A stretch of 64,000 nucleotides of DNA, from assembly GCA_039591615.1 (NCBI GenBank), contig JBDHDH010000027.1, forward strand, positions 6,585 through 70,584. The letters run 5' to 3'. Below the pieces are notes generated by a model. That model did no database searches, was not told the DNA's origin, and saw only the letters and a program-made list of their open reading frames with translations. The DNA comes from Gemmatimonadota bacterium. GTDB taxonomy: Bacteria > Gemmatimonadota > Gemmatimonadetes > Gemmatimonadales > GWC2-71-9. A program made the position numbers and the translations under genes. Below are positions 48,285 to 49,897 of the stretch, in pieces (within the stretch, counting starts at the first letter, position 1; each line of letters opens with the position of its first letter).

Positions 48285-49415
48285 TCAGAAGTGGAGGTGC
48301 GCCTCCAGACTGACCTGATCACGGTCCGTGGTCACCTGGGGAATGTCGTCGAGCAGCGTGTAGAACGCCGACAACTGCACGAACGAGACTGGGAACGTCT
48401 CGAAACCGAACCGCATGCGGATCCGTTGATCTTCGATGGTTTCCATCGCCTCGTCGCGGATCGCAACCGTGGGATCATGGTAGCCATAGGTGACTTTGAG
48501 GTTGACACCGCGGTACAGGAGCAAGTCACCTTCGACGTAACCGACGAACTGATCCATGTCAGGCTGGCCATCGAAACTGTCGAAGATCGCGTCCGCTTCC
48601 CCCAACAACCCCAACGGGCCCAGCTGGACCCCGGCAAATCCACCAAAGATGGCTCGTGACGCACCGGAAACGCTGTTCCGCGTCGCCGACGCACCCAGCC
48701 GGAATCGCGGGAACACCAACGCCGCGCTCCCTGTCACCTGTTTGTCGCTGTTCTCGTCCACCCCGCTCGTGCTGCCGTTGGACAACGCCAGCGCAAACGA
48801 GAGCGGTCCCGGCTCGAAGCCGATCTCGAACCCCACGTCGGGCGTCTTGTAGGTGAACCCCGTGAGGTTGCGAATGAACGCGTCATCGTCCCACAGCCTC
48901 AGGCCATAGGGAAGGAGGAATTTCCCGGCTTTGGCATAGCCGTTCCCCGGAAGGCCCTGGACCAGCGCGAAGCTCTCTCGGATGAAGGCGCGATCGGGCC
49001 CCACGGTCTGGTCCAAGTAGAAAGCGAGGTAGTTCTGGATCAGCTTGGCCTGCAGCTGGACCTGGGCCTCATTGATCTCGAGGGTGGTCCGGGGGGTGGC
49101 ATCACTCACCAGCCCAGAGGCCTTCGCCCGCAGATCGAACCCGATGGAGATCCAGTCGTTGATGGACCGGCTTCGGAAAGGCAGGCTCTTCGTCGGGAGC
49201 TGCGTCTGTGCCCAGGCACTCCCAAAGTCGTTTCGTCCTCCGCCTCCGGTGCGGTTCACGTGGCACTGTGAACACTTGAGTCCGGTGCGGAGGGCCATGT
49301 ACGGTTCGTCCGCCGCCCGGAGCGGGGCGACGGCTGTCACAACGGTCGTGGTGACGGACAGTATTATCGTGACACGCTGCTGAAGCATACGTTCGTATCC
49401 CCGATTGAGAGTCAT
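48285..49415 (-). CDS. outer-membrane beta-barrel protein with N-terminal CXXCH heme-binding motif (Cyc2-like fused cytochrome-porin candidate)
   Basis: A signal peptide (..[18 protein letters not shown]) is followed by [15 protein letters not shown] (CXXCH at 49260-49274). About 320 aa of amphipathic beta-strands end ...LEAHLHF. The start is 49415 or 49388; the track ORF N-terminus (to 49871) overlaps the upstream gene out of frame. Confidence 0.7.
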   Translation of the reverse strand: [376 protein letters not shown]

Positions 49416-49438
49416 TGGCCCCGAACCCATGGATCGGG

Positions 49439-49897
49439 CTAGTTCGGGGGCGGCGCGCCCGCCAGTATCCACGCTCGAATCGCGTCGACTTCCTGTTGCG
49501 TCAGCGCAGGGAATCCGATTGGCATTCGCGTGGCGACTCCGCCCACTACGCCGGCGTTCCCCTCCACTTTGAGCACCAGATAACTGGAATCCGGATTGCC
49601 GGCCTGAACTCGAAACAGCCGCGCAACCTCCACGGACGGTACGCACACGATGTTGGAGATCGCCGCTCCTTGGCTCAGGCTCTGACCGGCCGATGGATTG
49701 GCACCCGCATGACAGCCAGACAGGGCGCAGCTGTCGGTGAAAATGTCCTGCACGGGCGCGAAGAGATTCGGGTCCGGGGTCAGATTCGCGTTGCAAACAC
49801 CTGGAGGAGCAAACACCCCCGTCCCGTCCCCAGCCAAACAGCCCACCAACGCGACGGCTACAAACGAACACAGTGCAACCGTACGAGCCACGCTCAT
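49439..49897 (-). CDS. lipoprotein with PSCyt1-like (planctomycete-type cytochrome c) domain, variant CX4CH motif
   Basis: A GAGGAGG SD lies 8 nt before the ATG. The lipobox is AVALVGC. The domain reads VQDIFTDSCALSGCHAG...GNPDSSYLVLKVEG...RMPIG...LTQQEVDAIRAWILAGAP. Confidence 0.65.
   Translation of the reverse strand: MSVARTVALCSFVAVALVGCLAGDGTGVFAPPGVCNANLTPDPNLFAPVQDIFTDSCALSGCHAGANPSAGQSLSQGAAISNIVCVPSVEVARLFRVQAGNPDSSYLVLKVEGNAGVVGGVATRMPIGFPALTQQEVDAIRAWILAGAPPPN

Follow-up and report, generated by a model that had tools for sequence, protein, structure and literature searches.

The DNA analysed here is a 64,000-nucleotide (nt) stretch of a contig from a Gemmatimonadota bacterium (the window, to whose positions all coordinates refer). 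Its interval 48285-49897 contains two minus-strand genes separated by a 23-nt gap (49416-49438), the upstream one encoding a lipoprotein with a variant heme c site and the downstream one a porin-like protein with a single heme c attachment motif ahead of its barrel, for which the term cytochrome-porin is used below. An earlier note, made from the letters alone, had described these genes, their positions and their motifs, and it proved accurate in every checkable detail. The features of the pair are, in the direction of transcription:

49439..49897, minus strand: lipoprotein gene, 152 amino acids (aa), stop codon 49439-49441 (from the open reading frame (ORF) and a GAGGAGG sequence)
49838..49849, minus strand: lipobox LVGC with the predicted lipidated Cys20 (direct reading; the Cys is invariant in alignment A5 and nearly so in alignment A2)
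49709..49729, minus strand: CALSGCH (C57-H63), a CX4CH variant of the heme c site (conservation and column alignment)
49520..49525, minus strand: M125-P126, candidate distal Met ligand (invariant in A2 and A5)
49415 (ATG, 376 aa) or 49388 (ATG, 367 aa) to the stop codon at 48285-48287, minus strand: cytochrome-porin gene (ORF and start codons)
49308..49415, minus strand: signal peptide region, residues 1-36 (direct reading; cleavage predicted just before the conserved EPY)
49260..49274, minus strand: CSQCH heme c attachment motif, C48-H52 (conservation; aligns with the canonical Cyc2 CXXCH)
48288..49160, minus strand: 16-strand beta-barrel, residues 86-376 (AlphaFold2 (AF2), Foldseek and hhalign)
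48297..48299, minus strand: H373, candidate distal heme ligand (95% conserved in 132 sequences)

The porin start at 49388 (367 aa) is the one used in public gene calls (P0001), and the P0001 protein of public assemblies is identical to the window porin; the GAGGAGG is located 6-12 nt before the lipoprotein ATG. A promoter and terminator scan of 47600-50300 returned no promoter-like or terminator-like site around the pair, so that the operon boundaries are drawn solely from spacing and synteny.

The cytochrome-porin family and its barrel

On direct reading, the porin begins with a basic n-region, a hydrophobic core and an Ala-rich end ahead of EPY, and across the family an Ala-x-Ala-like site immediately precedes the conserved (A)EPY. 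The only CXXCH of the protein, CSQCH, is found ~12 residues into the predicted mature chain and is followed by VNRTGGGGR; after this N-terminal part come ~290 residues with an alternating pattern, which end in ..LEAHLHF. Within the family signature (A)EPYxAxRxGxxCxxCHxNxTGGGxR (consensus start AEPYLAVRxG), C48, C51 and H52 are retained by all 25 close homologs (A1), all 61 diverse homologs (A4) and 132/132 sequences of the family alignment, and in the A4 members, with an identity of ~42% or less, the two Cys, the His, two Gly and the Arg of the signature are all invariant. A CXXCH near the N-terminus is present in 130 of the 150 best representatives of the family (129 with one motif and one with a second further in). 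In the other 20, the alignment to the profile starts no earlier than position 52, and they are therefore regarded as N-terminally truncated.

When 1.84 billion cluster representatives were searched exhaustively by profile, the family came to 1520 clusters (50% identity) at E<=0.001, 839 at E<=1e-10 and 292 at E<=1e-30, and a word-indexed protein search with the porin returned 381 relatives, those with a named organism coming from Gemmatimonadota metagenome-assembled genomes (MAGs). Named members beyond the Gemmatimonadota derive from Steroidobacteraceae, Gammaproteobacteria, Deltaproteobacteria, Pseudomonadota and Ignavibacteria MAGs. The window porin matches no Pfam or NCBIfam family at E<=1, the family profile produces only chance matches against PDB sequences (E>=0.4), and precomputed Pfam matches to Porin_4 or Porin_O_P are found in a few family members.

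The AF2 model of the porin, built from 25 homologs, has a mean predicted local distance difference test score (pLDDT) of 69, with values of 70-85 in the barrel. Modelling with a strand count had been proposed in the earlier note, and the count came to 16 strands between residues 89 and 375, with short turns on the periplasmic side and longer loops on the other, including a 26-residue loop with a short helix (residues 167-192) that separates strand 5 from strand 6. When compared with the PDB using Foldseek, the model matches 16-strand porins at E ~1e-11 and template modelling scores (TMq) of 0.55-0.63, with OprP (2o4v, TMq 0.63) and OprO (4rjw, TMq 0.61) among the best. The barrel is thus most similar in structure to OprP/OprO, OmpF, Omp32 and PorB; however, these porins have no heme site, and the family shows no profile relation to OmpF/OmpC, as detailed below.

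Many charged or polar residues are conserved in at least 85% of the 132 sequences, namely R96, Y133, D135, R146, E147, K162, R173, D176, R182, E197, E273, D275, E295, R333, E339 and H373. Twelve of these are located in predicted strands and, judged by the hydrophobic alternation, all but E147 face the lumen at mid-height, while R173, D176 and R182 belong to the long loop following strand 5. H373 is placed by the same alternation on the lumen face near the periplasmic end of the last strand, at a relative height of 0.22. H52 and H373 are the only conserved histidines among the 132 sequences and no methionine is conserved, which leaves H373 as the sole evident candidate for a sixth ligand; based on this pattern, it could serve as the sixth heme ligand.

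Homology to Cyc2

Cyc2 is a heme protein for which Fe(II) oxidation has been demonstrated biochemically (PMC8406198). Keffer et al. 2021 defined it by a signal peptide, one CXXCH, the motif AxPxFAR[Q/K][T/Y] before and PxL after this site, and a 16-strand porin, and dropped sequences without the FAR motif from their data set; their templates for Cyc2 were OprP/OprO, the same structures that are matched by the window porin (PMC8406198). The Cyc2-like architecture proposed in the earlier note is borne out, as the window porin combines a predicted signal peptide and a single N-terminal CXXCH with an OprO/OprP-like barrel that has 16 strands in the AF2 model, and its 367 or 376 aa lie above the minimum Cyc2 length of at least 365 aa. 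The two sequence motifs are absent: DEPYMALRT stands in place of PxFAR[QK][TY], and VNRTGGGGR is found where PxL is expected, ~4 residues after the CXXCH. Under the published definition, the porin is not a Cyc2 (PMC8406198).

As a reference set for Cyc2, the back-translated pattern P-x-F-A-R-[QK]-[TY]-x3-C-x-x-C-H was scanned in one genome per species. The scan yielded 121 motif matches, all with PxFAR[QK][TY] three residues ahead of the Cys, and 120 loci on contigs named Mariprofundus, Zetaproteobacteria, Acidithiobacillus, Nitrospira defluvii and Chlorobiaceae as well as seven from Gemmatimonadota, and the 92 full-length ORFs of 330-650 aa from these 120 loci served as the canonical Cyc2 set. 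These 92 proteins share ..PxFAR(Q/K)(T/Y)Gxx-CxxCH-xxxPxLxxFGxxF.., with P65 and L67 conserved at 95-98%.

Profile-profile comparison with hhalign relates the 132-sequence family to the 92 Cyc2 proteins with a probability of 98.8% (E 8e-17) over 330 columns, and the relation persists when the barrels only (95%, E 3.6e-8, 243 columns) or the N-terminal parts only (97.8%, E 8e-13) are compared. In the controls, the family reaches 2% against Escherichia coli OmpF/OmpC (0.1% with the barrel only), Cyc2 reaches 7-8.5% against OmpF/OmpC, and the family reaches 0.5% against another outer-membrane-protein-like product of the window (44502-45767). The earlier note had named a lack of Cyc2 similarity together with an unconserved CXXCH as one outcome that would overturn its reading; the hhalign result and the invariance of the CXXCH are the reverse of this. 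Plain hidden Markov models (HMMs) link the two families at their edges only, the Cyc2 HMM reaching P0280 at 7e-18 and the family HMM reaching L123 at 1.8e-15. The HMM of the 92 Cyc2 proteins, used as a stand-in for the FeGenie models, matches 78 of the 132 family members (best 7e-18), and it does not report the window porin even at E<=100. NCBIfam contains no Cyc2 model, three canonical Cyc2 sequences matching 0 families there, and its silence on the porin therefore says nothing about Cyc2 membership. The Cyc2-like reading of the earlier note is supported by the homology over nearly the full length, whereas both signature motifs are missing and the Cyc2 HMM does not reach the window porin.

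The likeness to the Cyc2 group, which takes in A. ferrooxidans Cyc2, M. ferrooxydans PV-1 Cyc2 and Leptospirillum Cyt572, includes the signal peptide, a CXXCH within ~15 residues of the mature start and a 16-strand barrel of the OprP/OprO type, and the heme segments can be aligned gap-free as far as the His, as P-x-[FL]-A-x-x-[TY]-G-x-x-C-x-x-C-H. In contrast to Cyc2, the present family has xNxTGGGxR after the heme site and three extra residues before a shared FG, and it conserves a C-terminal His (position -3) and charged lumen residues, whereas almost only glycines are conserved in the Cyc2 barrel. The proteins are also shorter (~360-380 aa compared with ~400-500 aa in Cyc2), their lengths being otherwise similar. 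Finally, members of the present family are preceded by a gene for a lipoprotein cytochrome, for which a search of the 120 canonical Cyc2 loci with the lipoprotein HMM gave no partner gene in any (0/120).

Cyc2 homologs have been reported in Gemmatimonadota MAGs, and Cyc2 comprises three clusters (PMC9769843). In our scan, canonical Cyc2-motif genes were found on the Gemmatimonadota/Longimicrobiales MAG contigs L010, L012, L020, L029, L037, L047 and L056, indicating that the phylum holds both the canonical type and the present family. One reading would take the window porin as a plain Cyc2 ortholog, with the role known from Acidithiobacillus and Zetaproteobacteria, where Cyc2 oxidises Fe(II) at the outer membrane and supplies the electrons to aerobic respiration. 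The identical architecture and fold class would fit such a protein, as would the significant profile-profile homology to a set that includes sequences from Mariprofundus, Zetaproteobacteria and Acidithiobacillus contigs, and the occurrence of Cyc2 in the phylum, both in the MAGs (PMC9769843) and on the seven contigs with the canonical motif. However, both defining motifs fail (EPYMALRT and VNRTGGGGR; PMC8406198), the HMM of the canonical proteins is blind to the porin, and the family is set apart by TGGGxR, by H373, by ~15 charged residues conserved in the lumen and by its obligatory partner gene. The presence of the canonical type in Gemmatimonadota also points to a paralogous lineage rather than to the local ortholog, and genes for cyc1, rusticyanin or an oxidase are not nearby. 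We therefore consider a plain ortholog unlikely. Judged by its sequence, the porin is instead a remote Cyc2 homolog of the same architecture that belongs to a separate lineage, coexisting with canonical Cyc2 in the phylum. The literature found consists of Cyc2 papers, none of which deals with a TGGGxR-type cytochrome-porin or with a lipoprotein partner, and absence from these papers is no proof. What is new is a Cyc2-type fused cytochrome-porin that differs in its signature and conserved interior and comes with an obligatory partner cytochrome.

The lipoprotein partner and the gene neighbourhood

The partner lipoprotein continues after its lipobox with a Gly/Pro/Asn-rich stretch and ends with a C-terminal helix that closes in WILAGAPPPN, the tail reading LTQQEVDAIRAWILAGAPPPN. 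C57, C62, H63, M125 and P126 are invariant in 24 lipoprotein homologs (A2), and a word-indexed search with the lipoprotein returned 35 relatives, all of which keep C-x4(or 5)-C-H and the Met-Pro. The CXXCH of class I-like cytochromes is not present in the window lipoprotein, where CALSGCH has the spacing CX4CH. CX4CH sites bind heme in some cytochromes c3, and class I and PSCyt1-type cytochromes typically have an MP motif following their heme site. The lipoprotein resembles both of these types in having a heme site, ~60 residues, a Met-Pro and a C-terminal helix ending in W-I-x-x-GA. PSCyt1 is usually an N-terminal domain of large multidomain proteins, whereas the lipoprotein is stand-alone or followed by an Ig-like domain, and the Gemmatimonadota branch differs further by its CX4CH.

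The earlier note had called the lipoprotein cytochrome-like and PSCyt1-type. Both labels are reasonable for a distant resemblance, the second having weak support and no Pfam assignment. The window protein has no PSCyt1 match at E<=1, the gathering score of PSCyt1 (PF07635) being 22 bits. Its relatives come near this threshold: PSCyt1 is matched by 4/4 proteobacterial partners at 14.6-20.6 bits (sub-threshold) over profile positions 1-56 of 59, and among the Gemmatimonadota-type homologs PSCyt1, Cytochrome_CBB3 and CTI are each touched by 4/24 at E ~0.01 (best E for PSCyt1 0.015). In its AF2 model (pLDDT 73), the lipoprotein consists largely of helices, and the Foldseek search with this model yielded no significant match (best E 0.12). 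Most of the matches that follow the first are class I cytochromes c at E 1-5, again none of them significant. The top match is the hydrazine synthase alpha chain of Kuenenia (5c2v_A, E 0.12, 26% identity over 141 columns), which is not significant and yet ranks ahead of ordinary class I cytochromes.

Gene context was sampled at 12 distinct loci of the family, comprising the window-type locus (L001-L003), L004-L006, L128-L131 and L135-L138. A homologous lipoprotein cytochrome is encoded directly upstream of the porin in 12/12 of these loci, in Gemmatimonadota as well as in proteobacterial-type MAGs, and the earlier note was right in treating the two genes as a pair. In the Gemmatimonadota loci L004-L006, the upstream gene encodes a 150-156-aa homolog with SCAL(S/T)GCH. 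In the proteobacterial-type loci L128-L131 and L135-L138, five of the upstream homologs share 4 nt with the porin gene, and the four scored loci give HMM E values of 1e-38 to 1e-83. At the heme column of the partner, a canonical CXXCH is found in 7/12 loci (as CVRCH, CTACH, CTNCH, CTGCH or CADCH) and CX4CH occupies the same column in 5/12 (Gemmatimonadota and L129). Most of the eight proteobacterial-type partners have an additional C-terminal Ig-like domain (Big_5, 24.4 bits in L131). In L136 (2978-5970), three to four tandem cytochrome domains (CTVCH, CIVCH, CTACH, CADCH) alternate with Big_7 across two adjacent ORFs, suggesting either a multiheme elaboration or a broken gene.

These motifs also bear on the possibility that the Cys and His residues of the two proteins hold a metal (Cu, Zn or Fe) or form disulfides rather than attaching heme, in which case the pair would be a metal-uptake channel with a periplasmic metallochaperone lipoprotein. 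While the CX4CH spacing of the window lipoprotein is atypical for heme attachment, canonical CXXCH motifs occupy the same column in the partners of seven loci, with the invariant Met-Pro further downstream. The weak CopC-like match in the C-terminal domain of some partners (E 0.003, below threshold) could be cited for a metallochaperone, but it overlaps the Ig-like Big_5 domain, and the sub-threshold matches of the partners are to PSCyt1, Cytochrome_CBB3, CTI and Dehyd-heme_bind. No maturation genes are visible in the window, as a metal site would allow; however, the porin motif aligns with the heme site of Cyc2, biochemically shown to be a heme protein (PMC8406198), and the top structural matches of the lipoprotein, none significant, are mostly c-type cytochromes. 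A non-heme role thus appears highly improbable.

Across the 12 loci, nothing is conserved beyond the pair itself. In the window, the pair is divergent from the following neighbour:

50042-51337, plus strand: type II NADH dehydrogenase (NDH-2), from Pfam matches to Pyr_redox_2 (E 3e-50) and NDH2_C

The earlier note had drawn this gene into an electron-transfer module. The neighbour is indeed a type II NADH dehydrogenase, but apart from the window-type contigs (L001-L003), only L006 has a divergent NDH-2. The other 10/12 loci have a TonB receptor, a CHRD/Big_7 protein or an unrelated gene as their upstream neighbour, and a functional link to NDH-2 is rejected. TonB-dependent receptors are encoded near the pair in L005, L006 and L136. 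CHRD and/or Big_7 proteins are found beside it in L129 (4606-5478), L130 (2208-4967), L135 (3546-4802), L136 (2978-5970) and L138 (3081-3860), an ECF sigma/anti-sigma pair and an S8 peptidase in L135, L137 and L138, and Gcw_chp in L135 and L137. These recurring CHRD/Big_7, sigma-factor, S8 and Gcw_chp neighbours may be accessory or regulatory components.

The TonB-dependent receptors are of interest for a second alternative, in which the porin would be solute-specific or act as an outer-membrane enzyme, with its heme as a sensor, gate or catalytic centre that is re-reduced by the lipoprotein. It could, for instance, be a peroxidase or a reductase for iron acquisition, and no relay to the respiratory chain would be involved. 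The barrel interior is unusually conserved for a porin, which suggests a specific site, and the hosts are heterotrophs in which respiratory genes are not linked to the pair. On the other hand, TonB adjacency is limited to 3/12 loci, no catalytic motif is known, the nearest characterised relatives transfer electrons with Fe(II) (PMC8406198), and a dedicated one-heme partner is what a relay requires. Such a sensor or enzyme function hence seems distinctly unlikely.

The remaining genes of the window are housekeeping genes, encoding a T2SSE ATPase, AcrB/OEP efflux components, glutamine synthetase, MqnA-type menaquinone synthesis, RtcB, a methyl-accepting chemotaxis protein, MutS and a pyridoxal phosphate-dependent (PALP) enzyme with CBS domains. 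The 421-aa protein of 44502-45767 (minus strand), which served as an hhalign control above, has a signal-peptide-like start, ends in ..GMFF and has no Pfam or NCBIfam match. It resembles an uncharacterised outer-membrane protein family and is syntenic with an aldehyde dehydrogenase gene in the Gemmatimonadota loci L001-L003, L005 and L006. The AcrB/ACR_tran efflux gene (6264-9301, minus strand) is split into two overlapping ORFs, 7910-9301 covering profile positions 2-452 and 6264-7925 covering positions 477-1020, which points to a frameshift, a pseudogene or an assembly error. The type II/IV secretion ATPase (T2SSE, MshEN; 519-2627, plus strand) has a C-terminal response-regulator receiver domain, and a tRNA-Phe (GAA) lies at 51958-52030 (minus strand), where the overlapping long ORFs 51794-52792 and 51996-53102 may be spurious.

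A candidate electron conduit across the outer membrane

We propose that the cytochrome-porin and its lipoprotein probably constitute a minimal outer-membrane electron conduit. Taking the gene pair, the conserved motifs, the fold class of the barrel, the homology to Cyc2 and the strict co-occurrence as established, we infer how the heme groups may be attached, ligated and positioned, where the lipoprotein is placed, and which substrate is used in which direction, as follows. The two genes would form an operon-like module that moves electrons across the outer membrane. After export of the porin, a periplasmic cytochrome c maturation system would attach one heme to C48 and C51, with H52 as the proximal ligand, and the rest of the chain would fold into the 16-strand porin-type barrel. 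The pre-barrel heme segment of ~50 residues is too short for a self-contained cytochrome domain, and it is therefore predicted to pack at the periplasmic mouth of its own barrel, where the lumen-facing H373 could provide the sixth ligand to give a bis-His heme. A defined constriction would result from the long loop behind strand 5 together with the conserved charged residues that line the lumen as a belt. The lipoprotein would carry one heme on its CX4CH, with H63 and M125 as likely ligands, and its Gly/Pro/Asn-rich tether would hold it in place, the simplest location being the outer membrane's periplasmic face. A small redox-active solute would then enter the pore from the outside and exchange an electron with the barrel heme, from which the tethered cytochrome would take the electron over and deliver it to carriers that are soluble or in the inner membrane; transfer the other way round is equally possible. 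By analogy with Cyc2 and based on the homology to it, Fe(II) would be the first candidate for this solute; yet with an interior unlike that of Cyc2, a possible bis-His heme, a dedicated partner and hosts that are heterotrophs, other substrates and either direction may apply.

Several observations weigh against this electron conduit. The host lineages are not known as iron oxidisers, and a heme at the periplasmic mouth would be far from insoluble substrates outside the cell. No neighbour indicating an inner-membrane partner or a terminal oxidase is conserved in the 12 loci, a Pfam scan of 25 window ORFs detected no cytochrome c maturation gene (ccm/ccs), and 0/58 candidate window ORFs other than the porin contain a CXXCH. 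The CXXCH-bearing residues 29-84, whose placement the earlier note had also sought from modelling, have a pLDDT of ~30, so that the segment cannot be located and the heme position cannot be read from the AF2 model. To these come the lack of a significant structural match for the lipoprotein and the annotation of every named family member as 'hypothetical protein'.

The proposed conduit can be compared with the Mtr/Mto and Geobacter systems, which likewise combine an outer-membrane barrel with c-type cytochromes encoded by adjacent genes, one of the cytochromes being a lipoprotein (MtrC, OmcB). Geobacter OmaB-OmbB-OmcB follows the same large-barrel, multiheme plan as the Mtr-type complexes. In MtrCAB and MtoAB/PioAB, barrels of 20-26 strands sheathe a separate multiheme cytochrome (8-10 hemes), which is complemented by a multiheme lipoprotein at the surface (PMC8406198). 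In contrast, the pair described here has two predicted hemes in total, one of them fused to a barrel of 16 strands, and does not have the 20-26 strands around a separate multiheme cytochrome that characterize the Mtr/Pcc type.

A more far-reaching version, which we regard as doubtful, is that the pair represents a distinct and widespread two-component outer-membrane redox machine rather than a diverged iron oxidase. H52 and H373 would then keep the heme within the barrel, and the pair would exchange electrons with substrates other than dissolved Fe(II). Humic substances, minerals or Mn may be such substrates in abundant soil heterotrophs (Gemmatimonadota and Steroidobacteraceae), and the obligatory lipoprotein cytochrome, with a CX4CH site in some lineages and Ig-extended or tandem in others, may be displayed at the surface like MtrC. 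To our knowledge, a bis-His, barrel-ligated heme arrangement has not been described for any porin.

Cyc2 is the main marker for iron-oxidising potential in genomes and metagenomes, and published pipelines require PxFAR[QK][TY]. A large unnamed family with the Cyc2 architecture, found in common soil and sediment lineages, is excluded by this motif filter, and Pfam and NCBIfam are silent on it. If electrons do cross the outer membrane through these proteins, an entire class of conduits is underestimated in surveys of iron cycling and extracellular electron transfer, above all among heterotrophs such as the Gemmatimonadota. The strictly conserved partner cytochrome makes for a simple, testable two-protein system, and with CXXCH and CX4CH alternating at a single site, heme attachment can be studied as a natural experiment. 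The conserved interior and the candidate barrel-derived ligand could help to settle how a lone heme in a narrow porin meets its substrate, in Cyc2 as well.

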